A stretch of DNA of 64,000 nt. Source: an uncultured Coriobacteriales bacterium (lineage in GTDB: Bacteria > Actinomycetota > Coriobacteriia > Coriobacteriales > QAMH01). Below the pieces are notes generated by a model that worked only from the letters and a program-made list of their open reading frames with translations, did no database searches and had not been told where the DNA came from. A program made the position numbers and the translations under genes. The stretch spans positions 42,090 through 106,089 of the forward strand of contig CAKUES010000001.1 of assembly GCA_934646835.1 (NCBI GenBank), in the 5' to 3' direction. Of this stretch, positions 5,195 to 50,505 are shown piece after piece. Numbering within the stretch: the stretch's first letter is position 1; the number at the start of each line of letters is the position of its first letter.

Positions 5195-5243
5195 CGGGGC
5201 CTGCGGCTCACCAGCGCTGGCGCGTGCCCTCCTCCTCCAAAAA

Positions 5244-5281
5244 GAGAGGCCGCTGAATGACTCGCCGTTCAGCGGCCTCTC
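5244..5281 (-). terminator. intrinsic terminator of the MoxR-ending operon
   Basis: gagaggccgctgaa / ttcagcggcctctc forms a 14-bp stem. On the minus strand it is followed by TTTTT (complement of 5239-5243), 36 nt after the MoxR stop. Confidence 0.65.
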
Positions 5282-5316
5282 GCAATCAACAGCCCGCAGC
5301 CGCAAAGCGTCGCAAG

Positions 5317-6288
5317 TTACTCCCCGTCGGCGCAGTACGGCACGGCAATGGAGCCGAGGATGCTGTTGACCACGTCTTGAGCGGTGCGTCCCTGAACCTT
5401 GGCCTCGTGGCTCAAGGTGATGCGGTGGCACAGGACACAGGGCGCGAGCGCTTTGACGTCGTCGGGCATGACGTAGCCGCGGCCACGGGACAGCGCGAAG
5501 GCGCGGCTCAGCGCCATGAGCGCAAGGCCGCCGCGCGTCGAGGAGCCCACCTGGATCTCCGGGTTGGAGCGCGTCGCGGTGAGGATTTCCACGATGTAGC
5601 GCGTGACGAGCTGGCTGACGTGGACTTGGGTGGCGATATCGCGCACAGCGAGCACGTCAGACGCGCTGGCCACCGGGCGCACGGCCTTCTTGGCGCTGTC
5701 GCCGAGCTCCAGCACGCGCATCTCCTGCTCGAAGTCCGGATAGCCCATGGACAGCTTGATGAGGAAGCGGTCGAGCTGAGCCTCGGGCAACGGGTAGGTG
5801 CCAAACTGCTCGATGGGGTTTTGCGTGGCGAGCACCATGAAGGGCTCGACGAGCTTGTGCGTGACGCTATCGACGGTGACCTGGCGCTCCTCCATCGCCT
5901 CGAGCAAGGCGGACTGCGTCTTGGCAGAGGCGCGGTTGATCTCGTCGGCCAAGACGAGGTTGCTCATCACGCCGCCAGGCCTGAACTCGAAATCGCGTGT
6001 CTTCTGGTTGAAGATCGAGAAGCCCGCAACGTCGGAGGGCATGACGTCGGGTGTGAACTGGATGCGGTTGAAGCCGCAGTCGACGGACTTGGCCAGCGTC
6101 GAGACAAGCGTGGTCTTGCCGGTGCCGGGCAAATCCTCGAGCAGGACATGGCCCCGGGCGATGAGCGAGAGCACCACAAGCTCGACAGCGCCGTGCTTGC
6201 CCTGGATGACGGTGTCGACGTTGCCGACGATGCGCTCGATGACGGCCCTCGCGGCCTCGACCTGGCTTTGACTGGGCATCTCTGCCAT
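5317..6288 (-). CDS. MoxR-family AAA+ ATPase
   Basis: LLEDLPGTGKT (Walker A) and VLADEINRASAKTQSALLEAMEERQVTVD (Walker B/sensor block), typical of MoxR. Confidence 0.9.
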   Translation of the reverse strand: MAEMPSQSQVEAARAVIERIVGNVDTVIQGKHGAVELVVLSLIARGHVLLEDLPGTGKTTLVSTLAKSVDCGFNRIQFTPDVMPSDVAGFSIFNQKTRDFEFRPGGVMSNLVLADEINRASAKTQSALLEAMEERQVTVDSVTHKLVEPFMVLATQNPIEQFGTYPLPEAQLDRFLIKLSMGYPDFEQEMRVLELGDSAKKAVRPVASASDVLAVRDIATQVHVSQLVTRYIVEILTATRSNPEIQVGSSTRGGLALMALSRAFALSRGRGYVMPDDVKALAPCVLCHRITLSHEAKVQGRTAQDVVNSILGSIAVPYCADGE

Positions 6289-6303
6289 GTTGTTATCCTC
6301 TCT

Positions 6304-7086
6304 CTAGAAAACCGGCGCGCACATGCGCATGGGCTCGTTGTGGCTGTCCATGAACTCGACGATCTTGACGCCCACGCCGTAGGCGGCCCTCATGTTCTTC
6401 TCCGTGATGATCCGCGTCGCTGGGCCAAACTGCATGGGCGCGTCGCGCTGCAGCAAGACGACGTTGGACTTGCACATGAAGGCGTGGTCGGGACTGTGCG
6501 TGGTCATGACGACGGCATAGCCCTTGGCGGCCAGGTCACGTACCTTGGAGATAACGCGCATGGCGTTGCCGTAGTCGAGCGCGGCGGTGGGCTCGTCGAG
6601 CACGAGCAGGCGAGGCTGCTGGCACAGGGCGCGGGCGATCATCACCAGCTGCAGCTCGCCGCCGGAGATGTCCGTGTAGACCTTGTCGCGCAGGTGGTAG
6701 ACGCCCATGTCGTTCATGGCGTTTTCTGCGATGTTGTAATCCTCCGCACTCGGCTGGCCGGCAAGTCCCATTTTGTTGACGCGGCCGAGCAACACGACGT
6801 CTTTAACCTGGTATGGAAAAGGCGGCGTGTGGGCCTGGCTCACGTAGGCCATGGTGTCTGCAAGGCGCTTGGGGCTCCATTTGGAGATATCGTCGCCGTC
6901 GACGGTGACCTTCCCGCCTTGGAGCGGGATTAAGCCGAGTATCGACTTGAACAGGGTCGACTTGCCTACGCCGTTGGGGCCGAGCATGCAGCAGACCTCG
7001 CCGCTCTCAACGCTGAAGTTCACGTAGCGCTGGACGGGCTTGCCCTTCTCGTAGCCGCAGGTCGCGTCTAAAACCTCGAGTTTCAT
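6304..7086 (-). CDS. ABC transporter ATP-binding protein (FepC/FecE/BtuD-like)
   Basis: Walker A GPNGVGKST, signature ISGGELQ, Walker B LLVLDEPTAALD. AAGGAAAGG lies before the ATG. Confidence 0.9.
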   Translation of the reverse strand: MKLEVLDATCGYEKGKPVQRYVNFSVESGEVCCMLGPNGVGKSTLFKSILGLIPLQGGKVTVDGDDISKWSPKRLADTMAYVSQAHTPPFPYQVKDVVLLGRVNKMGLAGQPSAEDYNIAENAMNDMGVYHLRDKVYTDISGGELQLVMIARALCQQPRLLVLDEPTAALDYGNAMRVISKVRDLAAKGYAVVMTTHSPDHAFMCKSNVVLLQRDAPMQFGPATRIITEKNMRAAYGVGVKIVEFMDSHNEPMRMCAPVF

Positions 7087-7098
7087 CGTTGCCTTTCC

Positions 7099-7839
7099 TT
7101 AGCAGCAGCCGCAAGAGCAGCTGGAGCCACTGTCCTTAGCGCCCGCGTCGACCGCAGCGGCTTTGGGCTCCGCGGGGCGAGCGGTGCTCTGGTCGTACTT
7201 CTCGCGCAGGAAGCCGCGGATGTTGTCCGGCATAACGTACTCGTCGTATGCGGGCTTCTCGTGCGTGAAGACGACCTCGAGGAGGCGCTTGACGATATAG
7301 GCCACGGGCGGGACCTCGTAGAGCTTGCCGTTGAAGTCGAACTGGCGGCAGAAGACATCGTAGCTGGACAGGGTGCGGCAGCAGTCGCATTCGTTCTCGA
7401 TGACCTCGGGACAGATGTCGACGCCGTTGACGCGCACGGTGGGGCTGCTCAAGAACTCGAAGCGGTCTGCCAGGTACTCGTTCTCGATCTCCACCTTGTT
7501 CATGACGATGTTGTAGCCGGCCATGTCCATGATGGGGCGCACCTGCTCGACGGCGGCAGCCACGCGCGCATCTGTACCCTGGCAACGGTCGCAAACGCTC
7601 TGGTCGAGGTAGAGGTAGTCGACGATGACGACCTCCTTGCGGCCGAGGTTGGGGTCGTCTTGCGTGGCATCGGGGTCACAGCAGCCGTTGGACTCGCCGC
7701 TGCCGCAGCAGCAGTCGGAGTCATCACCGCAGCAGCAGCTCTCCTTGGCCTCGGAGTGCTTCGAGCCACCACAGCAGCAGCTCTCCTCCTTCTCCTTCTT
7801 GGTCTCACCAGAGCAGCAGCAGTCGTTATTCTTCGTCAT
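7099..7839 (-). CDS. poly-cysteine protein with DUF2703-like (thioredoxin-like) core
   Basis: The N-terminus reads CCCSG..CCCGG..CCCGDDSDCCCGSGESNGCC and the C-terminus CSCGCC. The core VVIVDYLYLDQSVCDRCQGT...SSPTVRVNGVDI resembles DUF2703 as I recall it. The ATG at 7839 (GGGAGG 8 nt upstream) is preferred over the TTG at 7845. Confidence 0.7.
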   Translation of the reverse strand: MTKNNDCCCSGETKKEKEESCCCGGSKHSEAKESCCCGDDSDCCCGSGESNGCCDPDATQDDPNLGRKEVVIVDYLYLDQSVCDRCQGTDARVAAAVEQVRPIMDMAGYNIVMNKVEIENEYLADRFEFLSSPTVRVNGVDICPEVIENECDCCRTLSSYDVFCRQFDFNGKLYEVPPVAYIVKRLLEVVFTHEKPAYDEYVMPDNIRGFLREKYDQSTARPAEPKAAAVDAGAKDSGSSCSCGCC

Positions 7840-7939
7840 ACTCAATACCTCCCATTTTCAGACGGGCATGTGCCCGTCACCACAAACAGTGCAAGTAGCC
7901 AACAGGGCCAGCATGTTGCCAGGCCCTTGCAAGGCAGAA

Positions 7940-9286
7940 TCACAGCGTCAGATGTCGTATTCGATAGCCAAACAGCCCGAGCTCCTTGCGCGCTTTTCGA
8001 TAGAAGCTCTCGTACAGGTAATCCATGGCCTTGAGATCCTCATCAGCCACAGGCACATCGCCGTACTGCTGCGCAACGAACAAGGCCGTCAGGTGATCGA
8101 AGGAACCCGCCTCCTGCGCCCCCGCAAAGGGATAGATGCGCTCCCTGAACTTGTTGGCGTAGTCGACCGGAGTCATAGCATCTGGCTTGGCAAAGCCCAG
8201 CTTGGCAAAACGCGACAAGAAGAATCGATACAACGTGATGACGTAAGTCCCGTTGCCCTTGTTGCGCATGCGCTGCCAGCGGACCTTCCTAACCACAAAG
8301 CGAGGGAGCACGAGCAAGACCACGACCAGCACGAAGACGATCAGGATAAGAAGCGGCCAAGGAATGCTCGAGTTGAGCGCGACCTTCCGCGCACCTTCGA
8401 CAAGGTCGGCAAGGTCGATGTCCGAGTACTTGCCGGAGAGGTAGTTCTCCTTCTTCTGCGGCGCGCTTGTCCCGCTCTCGTCATGTTGCTCTGAGCTCTC
8501 GTCGATCTTCTTGTCAGTCGTCGTCTTGGGATCAAGGCTCTCGTCGACATTCGAGCTGGTCACGACGTTGTCCGTGTCGGGCGACAGCGAAACCACTCCC
8601 TTGACAGGCTGCTCCTCGTAAGCGAGGTAGATCGTCTGCAGCTTGATCGTCGCATGGGGCGGATTGAGCGGCATGACGATACCGATCACAATAACGGAGG
8701 CAACGAGGCACAAGGCGAGCGGCAAGCCGACGACAGAAGCCACAAGCTTTGCCGGCAGCTTCCCGCCTGCAGCAGCGGCGGGCTGAGCTCCAAACCTCAA
8801 AGCAAGCAGCGCCAAGGCCGCAACGGCGAAGACGAAAGTGCTGACGAGCATGTTGGCGGTGTACATCAGCTGGATGTAACTGCAGGCGAACAAGCCCAAG
8901 GCAAACAACGCGACGCAGCCGAGGTGCTTGCGTGAGCAAGCGAACACCACGGCGTTCACGATGCCGACAAGCGCGCAGAAGACGAAGAGGTTCTCCGGCA
9001 CGTCTTCAACGGGGTTGACCTGCGGGGAGACGGCAACCGCCGCAGCGCACGATGCGACAAGCAGCGCTGCGAATGCCGCGCGCGAGCCCCATCGCCAGGA
9101 GGGGCGTGCAGCCCCCACACCCAAAACCACCTGAGCGACAGAGCAGGCCGCAAGGTTGAGGGCAAGGTTGTGGTGGATAGCGTCGCTGACGTTGAAACCG
9201 CCTTGGACAATGAGTTCAAGCGAGCATGCAGCGACGACGCACAGCAGCAGCTCGAACCCAAGCAACAGCTTCGTACCCTTACTCAT
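7940..9286 (-). CDS. multi-pass membrane protein with DUF4129-like C-terminal domain
   Basis: About 7 hydrophobic helices, an acidic/Ser-rich linker, one further TM helix, then MTPVDYANKFRERIYPF...YLYESFYRKAR. This resembles the DUF4129 tail of transglutaminase-type partners of MoxR/DUF58. The ATG at 9286 overlaps the DUF58 stop (ATGAGTAA). Confidence 0.55.
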   Translation of the reverse strand: MSKGTKLLLGFELLLCVVAACSLELIVQGGFNVSDAIHHNLALNLAACSVAQVVLGVGAARPSWRWGSRAAFAALLVASCAAAVAVSPQVNPVEDVPENLFVFCALVGIVNAVVFACSRKHLGCVALFALGLFACSYIQLMYTANMLVSTFVFAVAALALLALRFGAQPAAAAGGKLPAKLVASVVGLPLALCLVASVIVIGIVMPLNPPHATIKLQTIYLAYEEQPVKGVVSLSPDTDNVVTSSNVDESLDPKTTTDKKIDESSEQHDESGTSAPQKKENYLSGKYSDIDLADLVEGARKVALNSSIPWPLLILIVFVLVVVLLVLPRFVVRKVRWQRMRNKGNGTYVITLYRFFLSRFAKLGFAKPDAMTPVDYANKFRERIYPFAGAQEAGSFDHLTALFVAQQYGDVPVADEDLKAMDYLYESFYRKARKELGLFGYRIRHLTL

Positions 9287-10577
9287 GAGTGCCGCCTCCC
9301 ACCATGTCGGCGACGTCACTCACCAGCAGGCAAACTGCACCGGCGGCATCGAGGTCGGCCATGAGGTTGCGGTTCTCCTTGATAAAGCGCATACGCTCAC
9401 TGTGCGGGGACACGAGGATGACGGTTACAGCGATATTGCGCGCGCACAGGCTGAGAATCGCCGCAACGAGCTTGGGAGTCAATGTACTCGTGCACAAAAC
9501 GGCGTTGTCGACGCCGGAGGAGATGCCACACTCGCTAAGCAACAGCCCCACCGCGTCTTGCTCCGACACGGCATCGGACAGCAGCGGCAGCTCGCCTACC
9601 AGCTCCCCGATAGAAGCGCTATCGGGGAGCTCCTCGTACTTGATCATGCGGCCCGTCTTCCCGGTAAAACACAACTCGGTCTCGAGCTTGCGGCTCTGCG
9701 AGAGCTTGAAGGAGGTGATTGCGGACTCGACCAGGACATCGCGCGCTTCCATGAGCAGTTCGTGGCTGAGCGCCAGTGCATGGAAGTCGATGATGACGGC
9801 GGTCTTGGTGTTCACATTGGTCTCGAACAGGCGCGTCTGCAGGTTCTCCGTGCGCGCGGAAAGCTTCCAATGAACGGACTTCATCGGGTCGCCGAACTCG
9901 TAATCGCGCACCCCGGCATAGTCGACGTCGTCGGAGATGACAGAGCGCACGGGCATGAGGCTCTTGCGCATGGCAAGCTGCGAGAACTCGAGGGCAGATG
10001 CCTCACAGGGAAGCGGCGTGGCCACGATCGACGCATGGTCCACGCAGGCGACCTCTACGTGCAGCAGGCCAAACGGGTCGAAGAGCAAGATACCCTTCAA
10101 GCCGATCTGATAGCTTCCGATATGCGCGCAAGCCACCGAGGCACTGATGCGGGCATCCTCGTTGTTGTCGATCGCGATAACGGCCTCCTCGCTTTGCTCG
10201 ACATCCCCATAGGGATTAGCGACGAATACCTGCGGCAGCGCCTTGAAGACGGGCAGGGGCGAGCGGTTACAGACCGCCAGCGGCAGCTTGACGGACTCGG
10301 TGCGCGTGCAGGACTCTTCCTCGAAGTCAGAGCGTACCAACAGTCCCTTCTTGACTGTGCACAGATACATCCAGCTTGTCGCAAGCAGCAACAAGTAGGT
10401 GAGCAGCGGGATATAGGCGATGGGATGGGTCACGAAGACTGCGGGAAGCGCGAGCACGACGAACACGACAACGCAGACAATGATCTGCCTGAACGCAAGC
10501 GCGCGAACGCGCTGCTCATAGGCGCCGGCAGCCTTCTTGGGATTGAGCTTATCCAAGATACGCAGCACGCCTACCAC
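9279..10577 (-). CDS. DUF58 domain protein (MoxR partner)
   Basis: Hallmark motif DYAGVRDYEFGDPMKSVHWKLSARTENLQTRLFE and two N-terminal TM helices. The start is GTG 10577 (overlapping the upstream TAG as GTGGTAG) or GTG 10568. The track's longer N-terminus overlaps the permease gene. Confidence 0.8.
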   Translation of the reverse strand: MVGVLRILDKLNPKKAAGAYEQRVRALAFRQIIVCVVVFVVLALPAVFVTHPIAYIPLLTYLLLLATSWMYLCTVKKGLLVRSDFEEESCTRTESVKLPLAVCNRSPLPVFKALPQVFVANPYGDVEQSEEAVIAIDNNEDARISASVACAHIGSYQIGLKGILLFDPFGLLHVEVACVDHASIVATPLPCEASALEFSQLAMRKSLMPVRSVISDDVDYAGVRDYEFGDPMKSVHWKLSARTENLQTRLFETNVNTKTAVIIDFHALALSHELLMEARDVLVESAITSFKLSQSRKLETELCFTGKTGRMIKYEELPDSASIGELVGELPLLSDAVSEQDAVGLLLSECGISSGVDNAVLCTSTLTPKLVAAILSLCARNIAVTVILVSPHSERMRFIKENRNLMADLDAAGAVCLLVSDVADMVGGGTHE

Positions 10578-11821
10578 CCCTTTCGGGAGAACGTGGTCGC
10601 CCACACGAAGAGCGGCAAGGTGACAGCGCCCGCAACCACGCCGATAGGCAGGCCAATGCCAGGGAAGGGAATGAGCACTGTAAGGTCGCGGCAGATGAGG
10701 AGCACGATTGTGCCGAGCAAAACATTGCCCCACAACTGGCGCCTGAACTCGCTGCCAAAGAGGTAGCGTGCGAGGAAGGGCACGACGAGCGCGAACGAGG
10801 AAGCGGACCCGACGAAGACCTGGGCCGTCAGGATCATGATGGAGCCGGCGATGATGGAGAGGACCCTGAGAGCCGCCGGGTGCCCACCCATGACGCGGAT
10901 CTCACCATCGCTGAAGGAGAGCAGGTTGAGGCGATAGCGCATGATCGCAACGGGCACGAAGGCCACCAAGACGGAGCCGATGAGCACAACGTAGGTGATC
11001 GGCTGGTAGTAGATGTCGAGTGCCTCCTGGTACTCGAAGAACTCGATCCAGATGTTGAGCGCGGACAGCTGGTCCATCATGTACTTGACCACCGCACCGA
11101 GGAAGGCGGACATGATCGTGCCGACGACGAGCATGTCGAAGACGCTGATGCTCGTCTTGCGCTTGGTGATGAGCTTGCTCAGCACGAAGACCGCAGCAAG
11201 CGTGACTATGCCGGCGGTGTATCCGTAGACAAAGCGCTGGCTGTGCATGTCGAACGAGATGGCCCCGTAAGTCGCAAAGACGAAGAGCAGGCCAACCTGC
11301 ACGCCATGAGTGACGCCAAGCAGCGACGGCGAGGCGATGGGGTTGCGGAAGACGACCTGGTACAACATGCCAGCGCAGGCAAGCAAAGCACCGCTCGCAA
11401 CTGTAGCGAGCGTTATGCCGGCGCGCTGGACGACCTGCGCATACAGCGGCGCCACATCGACCAGGCTGGTCTTCTCGTCAAAGAGACCCAGCCCAAAGAT
11501 ATTGGAGAGCTGCCAAAGCGACCAATTCCACAAGTTGGATGCGACGTCAATGGGATTATAGAAGCTCACATAACCAGAACCCGAGCCCGTGAGGCTGAAG
11601 CACATCGAGACAAGGGTCAGCGCGACGGCGATGCAGGCCATCACTGCGATCTTGAGTCGATAGACCTTGCGGTCGGCCTTGAGGTTGGCATCAGACTGCC
11701 CGCGGGTAATGTCGCCTGCACCCTCTGCAACACGCAGGGCGAAGGCATCGTCGCGGAGAAACTCCGGGAGCTGGTAGCCCTCCTTGAAACGCGGGGCACC
11801 TGCGACCTTATTTCCAAGCAT
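10571..11821 (-). CDS. FecCD-family ABC permease
   Basis: Polytopic protein with the FecCD-type block LNLLSFSDGEIRVMGGHPAALRV. The ATG at 11821 (MLGNKV...) overlaps the upstream gene end by 14 nt. Confidence 0.85.
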   Translation of the reverse strand: MLGNKVAGAPRFKEGYQLPEFLRDDAFALRVAEGAGDITRGQSDANLKADRKVYRLKIAVMACIAVALTLVSMCFSLTGSGSGYVSFYNPIDVASNLWNWSLWQLSNIFGLGLFDEKTSLVDVAPLYAQVVQRAGITLATVASGALLACAGMLYQVVFRNPIASPSLLGVTHGVQVGLLFVFATYGAISFDMHSQRFVYGYTAGIVTLAAVFVLSKLITKRKTSISVFDMLVVGTIMSAFLGAVVKYMMDQLSALNIWIEFFEYQEALDIYYQPITYVVLIGSVLVAFVPVAIMRYRLNLLSFSDGEIRVMGGHPAALRVLSIIAGSIMILTAQVFVGSASSFALVVPFLARYLFGSEFRRQLWGNVLLGTIVLLICRDLTVLIPFPGIGLPIGVVAGAVTLPLFVWATTFSRKGW

Positions 11822-13025
11822 GGGCACCTCCCCTTCCCCTGAAAGCGACGATGAAGAACACAATGCAGCCGATGAACGTGGCGATGAGGTTGAAACCCTG
11901 GTCCATGTCGATGTTGAGCTGGCTGCCGATAAACAAAACGACCATCACGAAGATTGAGCCGATGACAAGCGACATGGGCATGAGGTAGCGGAAGTTGGGA
12001 CCGACCAGCCGGCGCGCGACATGGGGGCTCACAAAACCGACGAAGGCGATGGGGCCACAGAAGCCGACCACGATGCCCGTCGCCGCCGTGCACAAGACGA
12101 TGGTGCCCGTGCGGAACCTGCCCACATCCATGCCCGAAGAGCGCGCGATGTCGTCGCTCAAGGAGAGCAGGTTGAGCCGCGTGCGCAGCACCATAAGACA
12201 TGCGAGCAAGATGACGAGCGGGATGAGGAAGACCAACAGGTCCCTGAAGGTGATGAACGCGGTGAAGGGGACGGCTTGGGCGTTTTCTACGAGGTCCGCT
12301 CGAACAGCATCGCCGGTCACCTCGAGGAAATAGCGGAAGGTGTTCGCCACCGTGGCCAAGACGAGCGTGAAGACCTGGCCCACGACGATGAGAACGACGT
12401 TTCCAAGGGCCCCGTTGCCCACAGCGCGCGAGACGAAGAGCGCCGTCGCGGCGACGATCAGGCCTCCTGCGATGGCGCAGATGGCGGCGCCGTAGACCGC
12501 CCAAGCAAACTCAAGTGGATTCATCCCCTGCAGGGAGTCCATAACCTGCGAGGCAGAGACCACGGAGGAACCCCAGATGTCCGGCATGAGGCACAGGTAG
12601 TACAGCGTCGAGCCAAAGAGACAGCCGCTGATGATGCCCAGCGTGGAAGGCGATGCAAGCGGGTTCTTGAAGGTACCCTGGTAGACGGCGCCGCACACGC
12701 CGAGCGCACCGCCGGCGACAAACGCGGCGATGTAGCGCATGACCGTGGCCTTCTGCATGCCGCCGGCTCCCGAGCCGCTCAAGACAGCAGCGGTGTCGGC
12801 GACGTTGGACCCCAATTGGTCGAGAAACTCCGCCATCGTGGACTTGTGGCCGATCTCCGTAAGAAGACCGGACGGCAAGACAATCGCGCCGGCCAAGATG
12901 GCAAGCGCGATCACGAGCAAGATCACGATGCGACGGGCCTTCGCAGAATCCTTGCCCAAGGCGGCGAGCTGCGGCTTGGGCGCCTCAACCTCTGTCTCTA
13001 TGTGCAGGCTGCTCTTGTGTTCCAT
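11808..13025 (-). CDS. FecCD-family ABC permease
   Basis: Polytopic protein with the block LNLLSLSDDIARSSGMDVGRFR. Its ATG overlaps the TAA of the binding-protein gene (TAATG). Confidence 0.85.
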   Translation of the reverse strand: MEHKSSLHIETEVEAPKPQLAALGKDSAKARRIVILLVIALAILAGAIVLPSGLLTEIGHKSTMAEFLDQLGSNVADTAAVLSGSGAGGMQKATVMRYIAAFVAGGALGVCGAVYQGTFKNPLASPSTLGIISGCLFGSTLYYLCLMPDIWGSSVVSASQVMDSLQGMNPLEFAWAVYGAAICAIAGGLIVAATALFVSRAVGNGALGNVVLIVVGQVFTLVLATVANTFRYFLEVTGDAVRADLVENAQAVPFTAFITFRDLLVFLIPLVILLACLMVLRTRLNLLSLSDDIARSSGMDVGRFRTGTIVLCTAATGIVVGFCGPIAFVGFVSPHVARRLVGPNFRYLMPMSLVIGSIFVMVVLFIGSQLNIDMDQGFNLIATFIGCIVFFIVAFRGRGGAHAWK

Positions 13026-14953
13026 TACTCCTTGGAGCCTTCCAGAATCTTATCGACCTCGCTTGCGCTCAGGTCATAGCGGTAAAACGTCTTGTAGAAG
13101 TCCTTGACCTCCGTTTTGACAGAGCCCTTCCAAGAGCTTTTGTACTCGTCGATGCTCGCAATCCAAGCCGACTCCAAGCAAGACTCAGCCGAGCCCTGCG
13201 TCCAATCGCTAAACAGACCACTCGGATTGACGACGACATTCTTGCCAAGGTCCGTCCCAGGGTGGATGGCTGCGTACACATGGGTTCCGTTGAACTCGAA
13301 GCCCGCGCGCTCGCTGCCCGACTCGATGGGGTCGTAAACGCAGTACGGACCCTTCTTCGCGCTGCCGGAGACAAAGGCTGCCTTCATCTTCTTGCTGCCC
13401 ACGATGACCTTGGGGAACTTCTTCGAGCCAAAGCCGTTCTTGCCGAGCTGGTCTGCCTTGGTGCTCGACGTGGTAAGGGGCGTCATGTCAAAGCGCTTGT
13501 TGCCGATCGACAGCACACGCTTCTTGATAGAGCTCGTCGACCAGCTGATCTTGGACATGTCGTAGACGCTCGTGCTGAACTGCCAGACAGGGATGAACAG
13601 GCCGTCGTTGCCCTTGCTCTCATCCATGGCGGCGCCATTGTTGATGACGCCGGCTACGCCCATGTAGAAAGAGACCGGGCTCGACCTGTAGCCGACGGTC
13701 GAGAGCCCCAGTCCGGACTGAGACGTCGTAACGGAGCCGCTCATGGCGCCGTCTCCGCTGTAGCTGGCCTTGTAGTCCCAATCGTCGACAAGCAGCGTCC
13801 ACTTGTCCGAATTGTACATGCCGTAACGGTTCTTGCCGCTTGCGTCCGCATCGTAGTAGACCTTGTCGTGCGAGCCGTACCCGTTCGACCCCATGATGTC
13901 CTTGAGAAGGGCGTCGTGATACTTCACGTACTCTTCGGCGCGCTTCTTGGACTCGCCACCCGTGGCAGAGTCGAGCATGGTGCCGATAGTGTTCACCGCG
14001 GCTTTGATGCGCGTGTCAGAGCTCAGATCCGGAACAACCGTGACGGAGATCTTCGCGTCAGCGAGCTTTTGCTGCTGCTTTTTGGAGAAGTAGCCGCTGT
14101 CGTCGACAAGGACGGTATCGGGCTTGACGCTCACGATGGCGTCGACCTTGGCCTCGGCGGAGAAGTCCCCGTCATCGCTCCAGCCCGTCTTGATCTTGGA
14201 GGCTCCCTCGTCGGAGAAGACGTTCGAGAACTCGCTGCCAAGCAGCTCTGCGTCAGCGGCGACCAGAGGCGACTTGTCGCTTTGCCCGCCGAGCATCTGA
14301 ACGATGACAGCGGTCTGCCCGCAGGCGGCAACGCTACCTACCGAGGGGATGTCCGCATCCTCACCGGTGGTGTCATACACCTTGACCTTGCCCTTCTTGT
14401 CGGTGTCGGTCTTGCTGCTGTCGCCGTCGCCCTTGTTCTTGCTGGGCTTCTTGCTGTCGGTCTTGTTGTCCTTCTTCTTGTCGCCCTTGTCCTTGTTGTT
14501 CTTCTTCGAGTTGTCCTTCTTGGACTTGTCAGGGTCTTGCTTCTTGTCCTGGTCGTCCTTTTTGCCCTCTTGGGAGCTCGTGTCGCTCTTCGTGCTCACG
14601 CCCTCGCTCGCCTCCGAGGAAGCGGTCGCCTTCGAGTCGTAGATGAACTTGGACACCGGAAGGTCTGTCTGGGGGTTCTTAGAGCTGTAGACGACATTGA
14701 CCGAGCCCTCCTTGGTTTTGGAGGCGCCCTCGCCCACGACGAAGTCCTTCACATTGGCATCCGGGTCGATTTCTCCGTCAGGAGAGGAGACCTTGACTTT
14801 AGTGGGGTTATCCGTATCAACTTGCTCCGCGTCCTGCGTGTACTTGACCTCCTTGAGGGCATAGCTCGTCTTGCAGCCGGTCAAAGCCGCCGCAGAAGCG
14901 CACGCCACCAAGGAAACGCTGAGAACAAGGCCCATGCTGCGCTGAAGAGACAC
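13025..14953 (-). CDS. lipoprotein, class III (Fe-siderophore/B12-type) substrate-binding protein with long N-terminal extension
   Basis: Lipobox LTGC at residues 24-27, a K/D-rich linker, and the binding-domain-like block VAACGQTAVIVQMLGG...VKPDTVLVDDSGYF...ISVTVVPD. The GTG start overlaps the upstream TAG by 1 nt. Confidence 0.75.
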   Translation of the reverse strand: MSLQRSMGLVLSVSLVACASAAALTGCKTSYALKEVKYTQDAEQVDTDNPTKVKVSSPDGEIDPDANVKDFVVGEGASKTKEGSVNVVYSSKNPQTDLPVSKFIYDSKATASSEASEGVSTKSDTSSQEGKKDDQDKKQDPDKSKKDNSKKNNKDKGDKKKDNKTDSKKPSKNKGDGDSSKTDTDKKGKVKVYDTTGEDADIPSVGSVAACGQTAVIVQMLGGQSDKSPLVAADAELLGSEFSNVFSDEGASKIKTGWSDDGDFSAEAKVDAIVSVKPDTVLVDDSGYFSKKQQQKLADAKISVTVVPDLSSDTRIKAAVNTIGTMLDSATGGESKKRAEEYVKYHDALLKDIMGSNGYGSHDKVYYDADASGKNRYGMYNSDKWTLLVDDWDYKASYSGDGAMSGSVTTSQSGLGLSTVGYRSSPVSFYMGVAGVINNGAAMDESKGNDGLFIPVWQFSTSVYDMSKISWSTSSIKKRVLSIGNKRFDMTPLTTSSTKADQLGKNGFGSKKFPKVIVGSKKMKAAFVSGSAKKGPYCVYDPIESGSERAGFEFNGTHVYAAIHPGTDLGKNVVVNPSGLFSDWTQGSAESCLESAWIASIDEYKSSWKGSVKTEVKDFYKTFYRYDLSASEVDKILEGSKE

Positions 14954-16059
14954 TAGTTGCCCTCCGTCGCCTCGGCACTGCCCTTGCTTGCGCCTGAGTC
15001 AGCCTGGTTGTCGCCATACGACGAGGTGTCGACGTCGACGTCATAGCTCAGGCCGCTGGGCATGTCGTTGACGCTGAGGTTCGCGCTGATCTGGCTGGAG
15101 AGCCACGATGAGCACGAGATATCCCAGACGCGCGACTGCGTGCGCGTGGAGAGTATCTTCTTGAGGGTGGACGGGAGCTTGGAGACGTCGATGTCATCGG
15201 CCTTGGACGGGAAGGTGTAGCTGTCTGCAACGTAGATAACCTCATAGGCGTTGACATCGGAGTCAGAGGCCACGTCTGCGCTCACCTCGCCAGTTTTGAG
15301 TTTGGCGAGCTCGGTCTGCATGGTCGAGGTGGTCTCAGGGTCGACATCCCAGCCGTAATCCTCGTAGACGATCGTCTCTCCGTCAGCCTGCTTCTTTGCA
15401 GCGTCAAAACCAGCGGTAGCAGCGGAAGCTGTCTTTATCTTATTGAGTGCGGCCTGCAGTTTGGGGTAGTTGGCGCTGTAGAGCACCTCGAAGTGCTTCG
15501 TCGTGCTACCGAGCATGTTCTCGTGGATATAGCTCGCGATGTCTTGGTCAGTCGGGTCCGTCTTGTCAACGACGGCCTCATAGACTTGGTTGGCAAGGAC
15601 CTCCTTAGCCGTGCGGTCCCTGAGCTCGTCTTCTGTCATCTGATACTTCTCGAGCGTGGCCTCCCAGCTCTCGTCGTCAGTAGCCGCCATGGTCTCTTTG
15701 AGCGCGTCGATCTTCTTGTCGACCGCGTCTTGGTCGAGCTCGATTCCCCTCTCCTCGGCAACCTGCTCGATGACGATGTCACCTGCCAGCTCCACGATGG
15801 TCGTTTGGCGCAGGGCCTCAGGGGTGTTCTCGTTTTTCTCGAGATAACTCTTCCAAGCGTCTTGGTCGGTATAGGACATGACAGAGCGGAAGCTGTCGAT
15901 GTAGTCCGTGACCTGCTGCTCGGTAATCTCCTGCCCCATGATTGTCGCCGCGACACCATCCTTGGCGCTCTTGTCACAAGCGGTAATCACGGCGCAGGAA
16001 AGCACCAGGGCCGCGCTCAGCACACAGGCTTGTACCTTATGCAAAAAAGACTTCTTCAT
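14953..16059 (-). CDS. PrsA/SurA-like lipoprotein (degenerate parvulin-type PPIase domain)
   Basis: Signal MKKSFLHKVQACVLSAALVLSCAVITAC, a SurA-N-like helical part, and a C-terminal part HFEVLYS...DYGWDV...LKTGEVSADV..YEVIYV that resembles a parvulin fold. The start is taken at the MKK (16059). Confidence 0.55.
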   Translation of the reverse strand: MKKSFLHKVQACVLSAALVLSCAVITACDKSAKDGVAATIMGQEITEQQVTDYIDSFRSVMSYTDQDAWKSYLEKNENTPEALRQTTIVELAGDIVIEQVAEERGIELDQDAVDKKIDALKETMAATDDESWEATLEKYQMTEDELRDRTAKEVLANQVYEAVVDKTDPTDQDIASYIHENMLGSTTKHFEVLYSANYPKLQAALNKIKTASAATAGFDAAKKQADGETIVYEDYGWDVDPETTSTMQTELAKLKTGEVSADVASDSDVNAYEVIYVADSYTFPSKADDIDVSKLPSTLKKILSTRTQSRVWDISCSSWLSSQISANLSVNDMPSGLSYDVDVDTSSYGDNQADSGASKGSAEATEGN

Positions 16060-18647: not shown

Positions 18648-18989
18648 ATGAGCGAGAAATGCTGCATTGGCGACGGCAGCCCCACGGAGGAACTCACCTC
18701 GTTTGACGTCAACCCTGCATCCGCAGACCAAATGGCCGCCCTCTTCAAGGCGCTTGGCGACAAGCGCCGCCTCGAGATCATGGAGATCGTCGCCGATGAA
18801 GGCGACGCCTGCGCCTGCGCGCTGCTCGACGAGCTCGAGATCAGCCCCTCCACCCTGTCGCACCACACCCGCATCCTCACCCAAGCCGGCCTGCTCAACT
18901 GCTACCGTAAGGGCAAGTGGGCCCACTACCTCGTCAACGAGTCCGGCGTCGAGGCCGCCTGCGCGCTCTTGGGACGCCTGGCCAAATAG
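18648..18989 (+). CDS. arsR: ArsR/SmtB-family metalloregulator
   Basis: HTH region LGDKRRLEIMEIV...DACACALLDELEISPSTLSHHTRILTQAGLL with a C-x-C in the position of the ELCVCDL site, plus an N-terminal CC. AAGGGGGAG lies before the ATG. Confidence 0.85.
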   Translation: MSEKCCIGDGSPTEELTSFDVNPASADQMAALFKALGDKRRLEIMEIVADEGDACACALLDELEISPSTLSHHTRILTQAGLLNCYRKGKWAHYLVNESGVEAACALLGRLAK

Positions 18990-19007: not shown

Positions 19008-21425
19008 ATGACCACCCATCCATCTGCATGCCAAGGCTGCTCGGCCTGCTGCGCCGTCCTCGTCGAAGAAAGCGACGGTGTGATAACGGCCGTGAAGGGC
19101 AGCCCCGCCTCCCCCGCCACAGGCGGCGCAGTCTGCCCCGCACTGCAGATCACCTTGCAGCAGCTTGCCGACCCCGACCGCGTGACGACGCCGCTGCTGC
19201 GCACCAATCCCGTCAAGAAGCGCGGTGAAAACCCCAGATTCAAGCCTGTGAGCTGGGACCTTGCGCTCGACCTGATTGCCGAGCGCATGCTCGAGCTGCG
19301 CCGCGAAGGCAAAGGCGAGCGCTTGGTCGTGAGTCGCGGGCGTTGCACGGGTATCTCGAACCTGCTCTTCAAGGCACTGCCGGACATCTTCGGCACGCCC
19401 AACCGCATCACGCACGACGGCATCTGCGCGGAAGCCGAGAAGCTCGCCTGCGGCAGCATGGACGGCATCTGGGATTACCGCGACTTCGACTTTGCCAACG
19501 CGAAATGCATCGTCTTGTGGGGCGCAGACCCACTTGTCTCCAACCGCTTCAAATCCATCGCCAACAAGCTACTTCCCAAGCTCGCAGAAGACGTGCGCGT
19601 CTTCGCCGTCGATCCCCATCTCTCCTACACCGCCACGCGCCTGGGCACTGACTGCTGGGTGCCCATCATCCCCGGCACCGACGGCGCGCTGGCGCTCGCA
19701 ATGGCCCACGTCATCCTGATCGAGGGCCTGTGGAGCAAGGACTACGTCGGCGATTTTGCCGACGGGTGTAACCGCTTCGAGCCGGGCGGCGAGGTCGACC
19801 CCGCTTGTTTTGAGGAGCGCGGCACGCTCGGGCTGGTCGACTGGTGGAACAGCGAGCTGCGCTGTCGTACGCCACAGTGGGCGGCACCGCTTTGCGGCGT
19901 GTCAGTCAGCCGCATCGTCGAGATGGCGCGTGTCCTTGCCGCAGCCGGGAGCCGCAGCATCTCCTGGATTTCCCCCGGCGTCACCATGACGGCGCGTGGT
20001 CTTGCGAGCGGCATGGCCTGCCACGCCCTCAACGCCCTCATGGGCTCGATCGACAGCGCTGGCGGCGTAAGGCGCCTACCCCTGCTGGGCTGCGCGCCAT
20101 GGCCCTCGACCGAGCCGTACCAAGACACCGAGGCACATCGCACAAACGCCTGCGAGCCCGTCGACCAGCGCTGCCACCGGGGCCTCATGGCTGCTAAGGA
20201 CGGCGGCATCCACGCAAACGCACTCACCGACAGGCTGGCCGACGCCATCTTGAGCGACGAGCCCTACCCCGTCGAGATGATGATCGGCTATTGGAACAAC
20301 TTCGCGTTCTCCTGCAGCGATACGCAGCGCTGGGAGGAGGCGCTGGCAAAGCTGCCGTTCTTCGTCCACGTGACCACCAATATCTCGGAGACCTCATGGT
20401 TTGCCGACCTCGTCTTGCCGGCAAAGAGCCACCTCTACGAGAGCTGGGGCTACGCCGTGAGCCGTATGCAGGGTCATAGCTGCGTCTGCCTGCAGACCCC
20501 CGCCGTCGACGCGCCGGGCGAGGCGCGCGCAGACGAGAGCGAGTTTCCCTTCATGCTCGCTCAAAAGCTCGCGGAGAAGGGATTCCCTGCACTGCTCGAC
20601 TACTACCGAGATTGCTTCCCGGAGGTGCTGACGGGTAAGGTGCCGAGCAACGGCACCGAGCTCGGCCGCAACGCCGTGCAGCAGATCACGCGCCCCCTGT
20701 GGGAGGCCGCAGGCGGTTGGGAGTGCTTCTTGAGCAGCGGCGTTGCCGAGGGCATCGGCGCCAAAGCCCCGCTGCGAGCAGCGGGAGAGATCACGGAGCT
20801 TCCCACTCCCAGCGGGCGCTTCGAGTTTCGCAGCTCTGTCATCGCGCGCATGCTCGCGGAGTACGCGACGCCCCACGGCATCAGCCAGCAGCAGGCCGTG
20901 TCAGAGCTTGGTTACGAGTGCAGCCCGCAGCTGCTTGCCCTACCGCATTGGGAGGCGCCGGCACGTGTTGGCGATGCTGCCAACTACCCGCTGGTGTTCA
21001 GCCAACACCGCGCCTACGCGAGCCTCGAGGGGCGCTCTGCGAACACGGAGCTCTTCCAGAGGATGAAGGGTATGGACCCCGGCGACGAGGCCTGGGGCGA
21101 CGTGCTCAAGGTCCATCCCGCAGACCTCGCGAGGCTGGGTATCGAGGATGGGGCGATGGCGCGTCTGGTGTCTCCCATCGGCAGCGCTGCCATCAAAGTC
21201 CGCGCATGGGAGGGCGTGCTGCCCGGCGTCGTCTCCAAATGCTACGGGCAGGGGCATTGGGCGTACGGGCACATTGCGGCTGCCGACTTCGAGGAAAGCA
21301 TCCCCCGCGGTGTCAACGCCAACGAGCTGATTCCCGCTGTCTACGAGGGAATCAGCGGCGCTACCGCACGTCATGGCGGCGTCATGCGCGTACGCCTCGA
21401 GCAGTTGGACGACACACTGTCGTGA
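19008..21425 (+). CDS. molybdopterin (bis-MGD) oxidoreductase, ArrA/Psr-type, with no Tat signal (predicted cytoplasmic)
   Basis: N-terminal FeS motif CQGCSACC...C, Mo-ligand block HDGICAE, and the conserved blocks IIPGTDGALALAMAHVIL and GQGHWAYGHIAA. It is a clear paralog of 42676..45267 but starts MTTHPSACQGC without an RR leader. Confidence 0.8.
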   Translation: MTTHPSACQGCSACCAVLVEESDGVITAVKGSPASPATGGAVCPALQITLQQLADPDRVTTPLLRTNPVKKRGENPRFKPVSWDLALDLIAERMLELRREGKGERLVVSRGRCTGISNLLFKALPDIFGTPNRITHDGICAEAEKLACGSMDGIWDYRDFDFANAKCIVLWGADPLVSNRFKSIANKLLPKLAEDVRVFAVDPHLSYTATRLGTDCWVPIIPGTDGALALAMAHVILIEGLWSKDYVGDFADGCNRFEPGGEVDPACFEERGTLGLVDWWNSELRCRTPQWAAPLCGVSVSRIVEMARVLAAAGSRSISWISPGVTMTARGLASGMACHALNALMGSIDSAGGVRRLPLLGCAPWPSTEPYQDTEAHRTNACEPVDQRCHRGLMAAKDGGIHANALTDRLADAILSDEPYPVEMMIGYWNNFAFSCSDTQRWEEALAKLPFFVHVTTNISETSWFADLVLPAKSHLYESWGYAVSRMQGHSCVCLQTPAVDAPGEARADESEFPFMLAQKLAEKGFPALLDYYRDCFPEVLTGKVPSNGTELGRNAVQQITRPLWEAAGGWECFLSSGVAEGIGAKAPLRAAGEITELPTPSGRFEFRSSVIARMLAEYATPHGISQQQAVSELGYECSPQLLALPHWEAPARVGDAANYPLVFSQHRAYASLEGRSANTELFQRMKGMDPGDEAWGDVLKVHPADLARLGIEDGAMARLVSPIGSAAIKVRAWEGVLPGVVSKCYGQGHWAYGHIAAADFEESIPRGVNANELIPAVYEGISGATARHGGVMRVRLEQLDDTLS

Positions 21426-21944: not shown

Positions 21945-22283
21945 ATGGAAACCTATTACAACCCCGCTGACCTCGCCAAGTTCTCTGCAGAGGGCGTCGG
22001 CTCCGCCGCCCCCGAGCTCTGGGAGAAGTACATGGGCTACTACGGCTCCGTCTTCCAGGACGGCGCCCTGACCGCCCGCGAGAAGGCCCTCATCGCCGTC
22101 GCTGTGGCAGCTGCCGTCCAGTGCCCCTACTGCATCGACGCCTACACCAACACCCTGCTGCAGGACGGCTGCGACGCAGACGAAATCATGGAAGCCATCC
22201 ATGTCGCCAACGCGATCCGCGGCGGCGCATCCCTCGTCCACGGCGTCCAGGCCGTCAACATCATCGAGAAGAACGAGCTGTAA
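21945..22283 (+). CDS. carboxymuconolactone decarboxylase (AhpD-like) family protein, arsenosugar-biosynthesis-associated type
   Basis: AhpD-like CxxC (AAVQCPYCIDAYT), about 110 aa, immediately upstream of ArsS as in the TIGR04169/TIGR04167 pairing I recall. Confidence 0.8.
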   Translation: METYYNPADLAKFSAEGVGSAAPELWEKYMGYYGSVFQDGALTAREKALIAVAVAAAVQCPYCIDAYTNTLLQDGCDADEIMEAIHVANAIRGGASLVHGVQAVNIIEKNEL

Positions 22284-22372: not shown

Positions 22373-23401
22373 ATGTCCCAGTTAATCGATAGGATTGCAA
22401 ACGATCCTGAGCTCAAGGCGGCGATGGCGGCGTTTCCGCCCTTTGTCGAGCGCGTACCGGAGAAGTACCGCGCAAGCCTCGACGAGCTCGACGTGTTGCA
22501 GGTCAACGTCACGCGCCAGTGCAACATCGTCTGCAAGCACTGCCACCTCGACTGTCATCCCAATCGCACGGAGCACATGTCGCGCGAGCACCTCGAGCAG
22601 TGCCTCGACGTCTTCGAGCAGCGCGGCTTCAAGACGCTCGACATCACCGGCGGCGCTCCGGAGATGAACCCGGACTTCGAGTGGTTCATCCGCGAGGCGG
22701 GCTGTCGCAACATCCCCATGATCGTGCGCAGCAACCTCATCATCCACGAGGAACCCGGTTACGAGCACTACCCCGCGCTCTTCGCGCAGCTCGGCATCAA
22801 CGTCGTGGCGTCGCTTCCCCACTACCGCGAGCGCAACATGGAGAAGCAGCGCGGCGCGGGCACCTTCATGCCCGTCATCCACGGCCTGCAGCGCCTCAAC
22901 GCGCTCGGCTACGGCAAGGGCGAAGCGGGCAAGAACGCCGCAGGTCAAAAGCTCCAGCTTGACCTTGTCTTCAATCCGTCCGGCATCAACATGCCACCCG
23001 ATCAGGCGACCATGGAGGCCGAGTACAAGCGCCGTCTCAAGGCAGACTTCGACATCGAATTCGACAACCTGTTCACCTTCACCAATGCACCGGGCGGTCG
23101 CTTTGCCATGGCGCTCATGAAGGCCGGCAAGCTCGACATGTACATGAACAAGCTCATCGGCGCGTTCAACCCGAACACGGTCGAGGGCATGATGTGCCGC
23201 ATGGAGTACTCCGTCGCCCCCGACGGCCATCTGTATGACTGCGACTTCAACCAGGCGGTGGCGCTGCCTTGTGCCGACGGCCGCATGATCGGCGACCTGC
23301 TCGACCCCAACCAGCCGCTCAAGCGCCGCATCTGCTTTGGCAACCACTGCTACTCCTGCACGGCCGGGGCAGGCAGCAGTTGAGGCGGCAGCACAGCGTA
23401 G
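22373..23401 (+). CDS. arsS: radical SAM (seleno)protein ArsS, arsenosugar-type; in-frame TGA at 23381-23383 read as selenocysteine
   Basis: Radical SAM motif CNIVCKHC and Cys-rich C-terminal domain CFGNHCYSCTAGAGSS. The track ORF stops at the TGA, but the frame continues GGC GGC AGC ACA GCG TAG, giving ...GSSUGGSTA. A hairpin follows. The family assignment is firm; the Sec extension is less so. Confidence 0.75.
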
Positions 23402-29648: not shown

Positions 29649-29667
29649 AATCTTGTCCTCTCTCCTC

Positions 29668-39557: not shown

Positions 39558-39667
39558 CTCTTCCTCTCTACGCGGACACCCGCGCACCCTCATCAAACGC
39601 AAAGACGCGCTCGCCAGCATTACAGCCAGCGAGCGCGCAAAAGCTCGAAACCTACTATCCCTTGCAG

Positions 39668-42673: not shown

Positions 42674-42675
42674 CT

Positions 42676-48442: not shown

Positions 48443-48520
48443 GCCAAACCCTCCCCTTCTCTCGATGCAGCCGCAAACGCGGCGACTTACCAACAGTTTC
48501 CAGCTCTCCTGTGACGTGTC

Positions 48521-49573: not shown

Positions 49574-49581
49574 ACCCCCCC

Positions 49582-50361: not shown

Positions 50362-50505
50362 GTGAGTCCTTCCAGACACCGCTGATAACAATCGCCCTGC
50401 CTGTGCTGCCTGGGAAAACTTCCTGACAGCAGAACCGCAGGGCAAAAACAGCCTGCCGAAAAAGGGCAAAAACTCCTCTTTCGGCAGGCGTCTTTGGCAA
50501 ACCTC

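Follow-up and report, generated by a model that had tools for sequence, protein, structure and literature searches.

The closest described relatives of the protein studied here belong to the Pfam family DUF2703, which was placed in the thioredoxin clan, with 1ilo as a structural relative of the MTH895/ArsE type (Pawlowski et al., 2010; PMC3091736). Its association with ars clusters and its fusion to ArsD have been noted earlier (PMC6514093, PMC3091736), and a Rhodococcus homolog lies among arsenic genes, where a role as thiol reductant was guessed (PMC6514093). Two better described systems bear on the comparison: ArsD, in which Cys12/13/18 form the chaperone site and vicinal pairs lie near the C-terminus (PMC4562236), and ArsM, to which As(III) passes by thiol transfer and which requires a thioredoxin-type reductant (PMC6138428). 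The sequence analysed was a 64,000-nt window of an uncultured Coriobacteriales bacterium, to which all coordinates refer, and the subject is a minus-strand gene at 7099-7839 that encodes a poly-cysteine protein of 246 amino acids. Judged by its sequence, this protein is a clear member of DUF2703, and I give about even chances to the reading that it has a redox-active core and carries or buffers trivalent arsenic in the cytosol.

Family, cysteine tails and fold

The gene starts at an ATG (7837-7839), stops at 7099-7101 and is preceded by a Shine-Dalgarno sequence, GGGAGGT (7847-7853, minus strand, read from the sequence), with a 7-nt spacer. An identical protein is called in public assemblies and was indexed in 57 blocks of them; those listed are metagenome assemblies, some of them from Hadza samples. 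Among genomes, its closest relatives are assemblies of Coriobacteriia/Eggerthellaceae. The DUF2703 profile (PF10865) matched residues 73-184 over profile positions 3-118 of 120 with 87.2 bits against a cut-off of 23.6 (E=1e-24), as the sole strong Pfam match, and the family-invariant CxxC, SSPT(V/I)R and C-x2-C-x9-C were all present.

The protein contains 25 Cys in 246 residues (positions 7-9, 21-23, 35-37, 43-45, 53-54, 83, 86, 143, 151, 153, 154, 164, 241, 243, 245 and 246). Fourteen of them fall within the first 54 residues as four CCC triplets and one CC, separated by spacers rich in Glu, Asp, Ser, Gly and Lys; the last six residues read CSCGCC, and the core carries SVCDRCQG and CDCC. A preliminary description of this DNA, made from the letters alone, had listed these same tracts, with acidic/Ser/Gly spacers, and the translation bore it out in every detail. 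At a Cys frequency of 1.5%, as in nine neighbouring genes, at least 14 Cys in 56 residues would be expected with P ~1e-13, and four CCC were reached in 3 of 200,000 shuffles of the protein's own composition. None of the other open reading frames (ORFs) of the window has more than one CCC. Each CCC of the N-terminal tail is encoded as TGC-TGC-TGC/TGT. A hydrophobic N-terminus is absent by sequence reading, and the protein is therefore taken to be cytoplasmic.

An AlphaFold2 model built from 31 homologs divided the protein into two tails and a core. The N-terminal tail (residues 1-62; 7654-7839, minus strand), which holds the four CCC and the CC, is predicted to be disordered, with pLDDT staying under 50 for the greater part of residues 1-48 and 10-residue block means of 43-49 (residues 1-50) and 62 (51-60). 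The C-terminal tail (residues 223-246; 7102-7173, minus strand), ending in CSCGCC, is also largely disordered by prediction, with block means of 59, 50 and 44 over residues 221-246 and values below 50 from residue 234. Between them lies the folded DUF2703 core (residues 66-222; 7174-7644, minus strand), a predicted thioredoxin-like beta-alpha-beta fold with an inserted Cys-bearing hairpin, supported by pLDDT above 90 (residues ~65-222), the Pfam match and weak thioredoxin matches in Foldseek; its secondary-structure elements follow the thioredoxin order. The CxxC, C83-D-R-C86 (7582-7593, minus strand), stands at the N-terminus of helix 84-106, the canonical position of a thioredoxin active site, and P133 of the SSPT motif precedes strand 134-137 at the cis-Pro position of thioredoxins. 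A second cluster (C143, C151, C153, C154 and C164; 7348-7413, minus strand) belongs to an insertion that follows the last core strand and precedes the next helix, where a short helix and a hairpin bear C151, C153, C154 and C164 in the model. Because this insertion takes the place of the loop that borders the active site in canonical thioredoxin topology, the CxxC and C151/C154/C164 would be adjacent.

Conservation was followed in genomes, one per species, whose scan yielded 551 DUF2703 loci; the best 80 were analysed (58 from outside the Coriobacteriia and 22 from Coriobacteriia). C83, C86, C151, C154, C164 and P133 were invariant in all 80 and also in the homolog alignment, and C143 and C153 were present in 75. 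Selenocysteine variants were ruled out, as an in-frame stop or TGA aligned to a Cys in none of the 80 loci.

The preliminary description had called the protein thioredoxin-like and proposed profile searches with DUF2703 and ArsD. The former label is supported by the DUF2703 match and its clan, and by Foldseek, which retrieved only thioredoxins from the Protein Data Bank (PDB), weakly (E 0.01-0.1; target-normalised TM 0.4-0.6). A PDB sequence search brought up no chain with E under 0.1; of three marginal matches, two were the small archaeal thioredoxins 1nho (MTH895, E=0.5) and 1fo5, in accord with Pawlowski et al. (2010). Kinship to ArsD did not survive: ArsD (PF06953) gave no Pfam match even at E<=10, and an hhalign comparison of the DUF2703 alignment with ArsD domains from fusion proteins returned a probability of 0.3%, which together rule out ArsD homology. 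ArsD was also not among the Foldseek top 50 for the model. The position of the ArsD CC-x4-C (EPAMCCxTGxCG) holds C-D-R-C in DUF2703, and the ArsD motif occurs only in the separate ArsD domains of fusions. Searches for other families were negative for MTH895/ArsE thioredoxins (TIGR00412, PF13192; neither Pfam nor NCBIfam matched), for the Thioredoxin Pfam families, and for Fe-S families including thioredoxin-like ferredoxin (E<=10), while the NCBIfam 'DF family (seleno)protein' model NF049942 stayed below its cut-off (47.6 against 70 bits).

Had the tails been low complexity peculiar to one strain, homologs should lack them, and the comparison that the preliminary description had asked for excludes this origin. 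In a word-indexed search set of 58 homologs, 56 have a vicinal CC in the N- or C-terminal tail. An N-terminal CCC occurs in 37 (at least two in 29, at least three in 16; range 0-7), a C-terminal CCC in 39 and a vicinal Cys pair in the C-terminal tail in 48. Tract number, spacing and spacer type (acidic, Ser/Gly-rich or Lys-rich) differ even among orthologs of 80-89% identity, so the Cys-tail trait is maintained while the sequence drifts. A full HMMER scan gave 1,287 DUF2703 cluster representatives at 50% identity, and among the best 149, which were inspected for tails, 97 have a CC in a tail and just 11 an N-terminal CCC; CC pairs are accordingly family-wide, and CCC triplets characteristic of the Coriobacteriia sub-group. 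No array of vicinal Cys met in the family went further than that of P0059, a protein of 422 amino acids in which two DUF2703 domains are linked by a long run of (TSCCEPQ)n-type repeats.

A homolog search with residues 1-62 alone gave no candidates, low-complexity words being perhaps unindexed, and other Cys-tailed proteins were sought instead as proteins with at least two CC pairs within the 80 loci. G-rich vicinal-Cys tails were found on neighbouring arsenic proteins as well: ArsM ends in GCCGGGCC or GGCCC, ArsE-type thioredoxins near DUF2703 begin with SCCCCG or TCCCGG, and the C-terminus of ArsD is Cys-rich.

Arsenic neighbours and fusions in other genomes

Neighbours were counted by tblastn with one representative protein per neighbour group; the representatives were named by Pfam/NCBIfam, ArsC and Acr3 by sequence reading. 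Contexts in Coriobacteriia were taken from precomputed gene calls and tblastn, as longest-ORF calling erred on high-GC loci. In the 58 loci from outside the Coriobacteriia (mostly Clostridia), the neighbours were an ArsP_1 permease (46), ArsR-family regulators (45), an MTH895/ArsE-type thioredoxin (42), ArsC (25), Acr3 (20), a TlpA-like thioredoxin (17) and CcdA (16). The 22 Coriobacteriia-type loci showed a PhnD/PhnC/PhnE-like ABC importer (15/15/13), a signal-less ArrA-like molybdoenzyme (12) and ArsM (7). DUF2703 domains are fused to ArsD in P0055, P0068, P0079, P0085 and P0169, some of which carry an N-terminal ferredoxin domain, and to an ArsM-like domain through a poly-Cys segment in L001, L090 and P0088. 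Neighbourhoods and fusions together tie the DUF2703 family to arsenic in two phyla.

The L001 and L090 fusions are the nearest diverged orthologs. Both loci are diverged copies of the operon that hosts the window gene, with binding protein identities of 43-46%, permeases 49-62%, and DUF58 and DUF4129 proteins 42-47%; in L090 the ABC ATPase is 94% and MoxR 83% identical. DUF2703 again stands in the slot ahead of the ABC ATPase, as the C-terminal half of a protein of 567-574 amino acids with a linker of CC/CCC tracts. This half is 83% (L001) and 85% (L090) identical to the window protein, through to a C-terminal CGCGCC, and since slot and DUF2703 part are shared, the N-terminal tail of the window protein is the counterpart of the inter-domain linker. 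The N-terminal half has arsenite methyltransferase as its best, sub-cut-off NCBIfam match and Methyltransf_31 in Pfam. An ArsR gene directly precedes the fusion in L001; in L090 an ArsR-type (HTH_5) gene lies divergently upstream of the operon. Aligned with four-Cys ArsM types, the fused methyltransferase domains are without the Cys of 'YGCG' and 'GEC', and L001 is also without that of 'SNC'. From motif knowledge and PMC6138428, the 'YGCG', 'GEC' and 'SNC' Cys are probably Cys72, Cys224 and Cys174 of CmArsM. ArsM-like methyltransferases short of two to three of the four conserved Cys were met at four places: the window (39668-40606, minus strand), L001 (8801-9750), L090 (18361-19290) and P0088. 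Fusions of ArsM to further redox domains (AhpD, DUF2284) have curated models of their own in NCBIfam.

In L086 the gene order is PhnD-PhnC-PhnE, DUF2703 and an 800-aa ArrA-like enzyme (10787-13189). Such ~800-aa enzymes, which have no Tat signal and start at the Fe4S4 Cys motif, adjoin PhnCDE-like importers and DUF2703; they recur in L086, in L002, L003, L006, L009, L011, L012, L014-L017 and L020, and in the window (19008-21425). Those of the Coriobacteriia matched NF041714 with 736-785 bits, far over any other family and under its equivalog cut-off of 1600 bits. The pairing of importer and signal-less enzyme suggests that an oxyanion of arsenic (or a related one) or an arsonate is taken up and reduced in the cytoplasm.

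Host operon and arsenic island of the window

In the window, the DUF2703 gene lies within a minus-strand operon (5317-16059) in which a FecCD-type (type II) ABC importer is interleaved with MoxR, DUF58 and DUF4129 genes, an arrangement also seen in L090, L091, L092 and L093. The operon order is SurA_N lipoprotein (14953-16059), binding lipoprotein of 636 amino acids (13025-14935; a family of 15 sequences), two FecCD permeases (11808-13025 and 10571-11821), a DUF58-like gene (9279-10604) and a multi-pass DUF4129-like gene (7940-9286), the usual MoxR partners, then the ABC transporter ATPase (6304-7086) and, as last gene, a MoxR-type AAA+ ATPase (AAA_3; 5317-6288), all on the minus strand; the lipoproteins and permeases make up the import half. 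The ATPase gene begins 12 nt after the DUF2703 stop, and co-transcription is therefore likely. The preliminary description had placed the gene between the MoxR partners and the ABC ATPase, which is accurate, with DUF58/DUF4129 upstream and ABC ATPase and then MoxR downstream. As an explanation of the protein this neighbourhood failed: L091 and L093 have this operon and lack DUF2703, which rules out DUF2703 as an integral part of a FecCD/MoxR machine, and since the module occurs without it, the MoxR/ABC neighbourhood does not define its function. DUF2703 is read as an accessory insertion in one operon subclade (the window lineage, its strain copies L081-L085, L090 and L001).

The 100-nt gap between the DUF4129 and DUF2703 genes contains a perfect inverted repeat with 8-bp arms, GACGGGCA-CA-TGCCCGTC (7861-7878), just before the ribosome-binding site. 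The repeat occurs once in the window, where chance would give 0.07 matches, and could be an operator or an attenuating hairpin; a shared ArsR operator was dropped, as a second copy is absent from the window. Promoter and terminator scans were uninformative (one promoter-like site against 2.1 expected), and an Rfam scan around the operon gave a single sub-threshold match just downstream of MoxR, to Chloroflexi-1 RNA (5218-5296, minus strand; 27.7 bits against a gathering score of 80, E=0.04), which is probably due to chance.

The window is also an arsenic island. Divergent from the operon lies a gene for an ArsR/SmtB regulator that has a CC near its N-terminus and a CAC motif (18648-18989, plus strand). 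It is followed on the plus strand by the ArrA-like molybdoenzyme at 19008-21425, which has no Tat signal, starts at the Fe4S4 Cys motif and is predicted to be cytoplasmic (NF041714, 731 bits against 1600, matching from model position 51), by an AhpD-like 'arsenosugar biosynthesis-associated peroxidase-like' protein (21945-22283; TIGR04169, 165 bits against 120) and by the radical SAM protein ArsS (22373-23383; TIGR04167, 367 bits against 300). The AhpD-like and ArsS pair thus stands directly downstream of ArsR and ArrA-like genes in a gut anaerobe. Further along, an ArsM-type methyltransferase (37326-38372, plus strand) keeps all four Cys positions and ends in GGCCC. The Cys-poor ArsM-like paralog (39668-40606, minus strand) lacks three of these four positions and is a candidate partner in trans for the DUF2703 protein. 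A second ArrA-like enzyme has a Tat signal (RRSFLK; 42676-45267, minus strand; NF041714 950 bits, below 1600) and is accompanied on the same strand by a 4Fe-4S subunit (41960-42673) and a Nitrate_red_del chaperone (41313-41954). Aquaglyceroporin-type (MIP) channels flank this set (41313-45267), one upstream of ArsM (36291-37085, minus strand) and one at 45576-46373 (plus strand).

Several other genes of the region were recorded. Two Cys-rich DUF5714 proteins (39009-39620 and 47723-48493, both minus strand) hold 17 and 21 Cys, including WCCCG and GCCG, and resemble the model 'metal-binding double selenoprotein MbdU'; the first adjoins the Cys-poor ArsM-like gene, the second an ABC permease/ATPase pair (48521-50469). 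A third molybdopterin enzyme, AhtL-like (pyrogallol-hydroxytransferase-type, 895 aa), with a Fer4_11/CarboxypepD_reg subunit (28845-32355, minus strand), probably has nothing to do with arsenic. An IS200-type Y1 transposase gene (46856-47314, minus strand) sits inside the island, hinting that part of the region is mobile.

Possible functions and known systems

How the protein might handle arsenic can be laid out in steps. Trivalent arsenic would reach the cytosol via aquaglyceroporins or from the signal-less ArrA-like reductase, and the vicinal thiols of the disordered tails (four CCC, CC and CSCGCC) would capture it, with three sulfurs for As(III) and two for methyl-As(III), so buffering the toxic species. 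The tails could then swing the metalloid to the core, where the CxxC would stand beside the cluster of C151, C154 and C164, with C143 and C153, and the core would pass it by thiol exchange to ArsM-type methyltransferases, perhaps also to ArsS or exporters. The CxxC may in addition re-reduce disulfides that arise in a partner or in the tails. Arsenic binding itself, its stoichiometry, the direction of transfer and redox turnover are what I infer here. Ligand carrying is favoured because the vicinal-Cys repeats are kept, DUF2703 is fused to ArsD, the core has an extra invariant Cys triad, and fused methyltransferases have lost arsenic-binding Cys.

A number of points weigh against this carrier role. 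In the literature searched (by family name and PF10865), no published functional test of any DUF2703 protein was found. The protein's own operon encodes no recognised arsenic transporter, and the FecCD/MoxR module of L091 and L093 does without DUF2703. ArsP_1-type permeases score about equally with Cu/Zn and 'Sao' efflux models, so that some DUF2703 neighbourhoods are not arsenic-specific. That one As(III) is chelated by three consecutive Cys is a supposition, and the two core Cys groups are probably close in space as judged from thioredoxin topology alone. Other points concern electrons rather than arsenic. TlpA-like genes (usually within less than 100 bp) and CcdA genes (~550 bp; within ~650 bp) lie near DUF2703 in 16-17 of 58 loci (L024, L028, L037, L041, L054, L058, L062, L065, L069-L072, L080 and others), and a membrane-anchored TlpA-like protein with CcdA (DsbD_TM) beside DUF2703 suggests a trans-membrane reductant relay. 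Fusions to a 2x[4Fe-4S] ferredoxin (P0045, P0054-56, P0068) speak for electron transfer, and the canonical CxxC with a Pro at the cis-Pro position would fit a plain redox role.

These last observations lead to the main rival, to which I assign a real, though clearly smaller, chance: a dedicated thiol-disulfide oxidoreductase that re-reduces arsenic enzymes (the ArsM disulfide cascade, thioredoxin-coupled ArsC, CcdA/TlpA relays). Here arsenic would not be carried and the tails would be redox relays or incidental; this is essentially the guess published for the Rhodococcus homolog (PMC6514093). It accounts well for the invariant CxxC at the N-terminus of helix 1 and the invariant Pro, for a Foldseek and PDB sequence search that gave only thioredoxins, including MTH895, and for TlpA-like/CcdA genes and ArsC (25 of 58 loci) nearby. 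The N-terminal ferredoxin fusions, the curated ArsM fusions to AhpD and DUF2284 redox domains, the need of ArsM for a thioredoxin-type reductant (PMC6138428) and the weak similarity to the '(seleno)protein' family point the same way. Against it, 4 to 16 vicinal-Cys repeats would be superfluous for a plain reductant and are nevertheless kept in 56 of 58 homologs, fusion to ArsD, a non-redox As(III) chaperone, and the extra invariant C151, C154 and C164 suggest ligand binding, and the loss of As-binding Cys in fused ArsM-like domains suggests that DUF2703 gives ligands and not electrons alone. Carrier and reductant roles are compatible, and sequence data cannot separate them. The metallochaperone or sequestration role, analogous to ArsD, that the preliminary description had thought plausible is accordingly upheld in its link to arsenic, through the ArsD and ArsM-like fusions, the neighbour census and the island of the window, and given up as regards identity with ArsD.

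A bolder proposal, which I hold to be rather unlikely, makes DUF2703 the thiol half of a split arsenic methyltransferase, that is, a system for the alkylation of protein-tethered arsenic. The idea comes from the methyltransferase domains of three independent fusions (L001, L090 and P0088), which have lost As(III)-binding/As(V)-reducing Cys, and from the free-standing Cys-poor ArsM-like paralog of the window. Arsenic tethered to the tails and the Cys triad would be offered to a Cys-less SAM-binding domain, the CxxC would re-reduce it after each methyl transfer, and ArsS and arsenosugar-type products might follow. If true, a split ArsM would show a new route to metalloid chemistry, on a substrate tethered to protein. 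Joined to an importer (PhnCDE-like or FecCD-type) and an ArrA-like reductase in the cytoplasm, it would amount to an anabolic arsenic pathway in human-gut Coriobacteriia, from import over reduction and tethering to alkylation.

Less probable again is a general chaperone or store for soft metals (Cu(I), Zn, Cd, Hg, Ni, Co) that serves the FecCD-type importer and cofactor insertion by MoxR/DUF58, similar to metallothioneins or to tails of the HypB/CooJ type, and for example supplies metal to the neighbouring molybdoenzymes. In its favour, MoxR systems have a connection with the maturation of metallo-cofactors, 12 nt separate the gene from that of the ABC ATPase downstream in the FecCD/MoxR operon, and this slot is maintained in three diverged operons; ArsP_1 neighbours resemble Cu/Zn exporters, and a P-type ATPase is near DUF2703 in 5 loci. 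However, the operon does without DUF2703 in L091 and L093, and the context is found in just three diverged versions (window lineage, L001 and L090), of which both non-window ones are ArsM-like fused and ArsR-associated. The dominant neighbours over the 80 loci are moreover ArsR, ArsC, Acr3, ArsM and ArrA-like genes, not metal-homeostasis genes. Least probable of all is an electron carrier for the neighbouring molybdoenzymes in which C83/C86 and C151/C154 hold structural Zn or an Fe-S cluster and the tails are irrelevant low complexity: four invariant Cys do form two C-x2-C pairs, each at a helix N-terminus, a MOSC domain fusion has been reported (PMC3091736) and ArrA-like enzymes adjoin DUF2703 in 12 of 22 Coriobacteriia loci, but Fe-S families gave no match at E<=10, tails conserved as a trait are not junk, neither C164, a fifth invariant Cys, nor the cis-Pro-position Pro is accounted for, and a molybdoenzyme is absent nearby in most Clostridia loci.

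For the favoured carrier reading and its main rival alike, a large orphan family (at least 1,287 clusters at 50% identity) gains a testable assignment as thiol carrier or reductant for trivalent arsenic. The island, with its importers, cytoplasmic ArrA-like enzyme, ArsM, ArsS and aquaglyceroporins, suggests active arsenic processing beyond mere export, which bears on arsenic speciation and toxicity in the gut. Short G-rich CC/CCC tails appear as a portable add-on of several arsenic proteins and could be of use as an arsenic-capture tag (biosensors, bioremediation). Three things are new here: a sub-group marked by CCC tracts, the fusions to ArsM-like methyltransferase domains depleted of Cys, and the recurring module of importer, cytoplasmic ArrA-like enzyme, DUF2703 and ArsM in gut Coriobacteriia.

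Among known systems, the tails themselves recall those of MerA (C-terminal CC, NmerA) and the metallothioneins SmtA and MymT, in which flexible vicinal thiols acquire a soft metal and either deliver it to a buried site or keep it sequestered. There is no sequence kinship to any of these, the context is arsenic and not Hg, Cu or Zn, and the tails sit on a predicted thioredoxin-fold core. With the thioredoxin that reduces ArsM and ArsC of the low-molecular-weight protein tyrosine phosphatase (LMW-PTP) type, DUF2703 shares the CxxC and the Pro at the cis-Pro position, and it adjoins or is fused to ArsM-like and adjoins ArsC genes; unlike thioredoxin, it has extra invariant Cys and long multi-Cys tails and stands outside the Thioredoxin Pfam family. 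The MTH895/ArsE thioredoxins (Thioredoxin_3, TIGR00412) are the nearest structural relatives, and 1nho is included in the best PDB sequence matches; they lie beside DUF2703 in 42 of 58 loci, and some share an N-terminal tail of the SCCCGG type. DUF2703 differs from them in the inserted Cys-rich hairpin, an extra C-terminal helix and a length of ~160 against ~75 residues.

ArsD, the As(III) metallochaperone for the ArsA ATPase, is a small cytoplasmic protein of thioredoxin fold, as DUF2703 is predicted to be, and shares with it vicinal Cys, including a C-terminal CC...CC, and a place among arsenic genes; the two domains are fused in single chains. The DUF2703 protein, in contrast, has a core built on a CxxC and a Cys triad instead of CC-x4-C, carries far more Cys tracts and shows no detectable sequence kinship. 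ArsA was also not seen among the annotated genes of the window: an ArsA-family domain was absent from the called genes of ~0-48 kb and from ten additional ORFs scanned (eight at 48-63 kb), a partial coverage. Within the DUF2703 family the window protein keeps all invariant residues and lies among arsenic genes like the Rhodococcus member, whereas its sub-group is set apart by the use of CCC (37 of 58 close homologs against 11 of 149 in the broad set) and by residence in a FecCD/MoxR operon and not in a classical ars operon.

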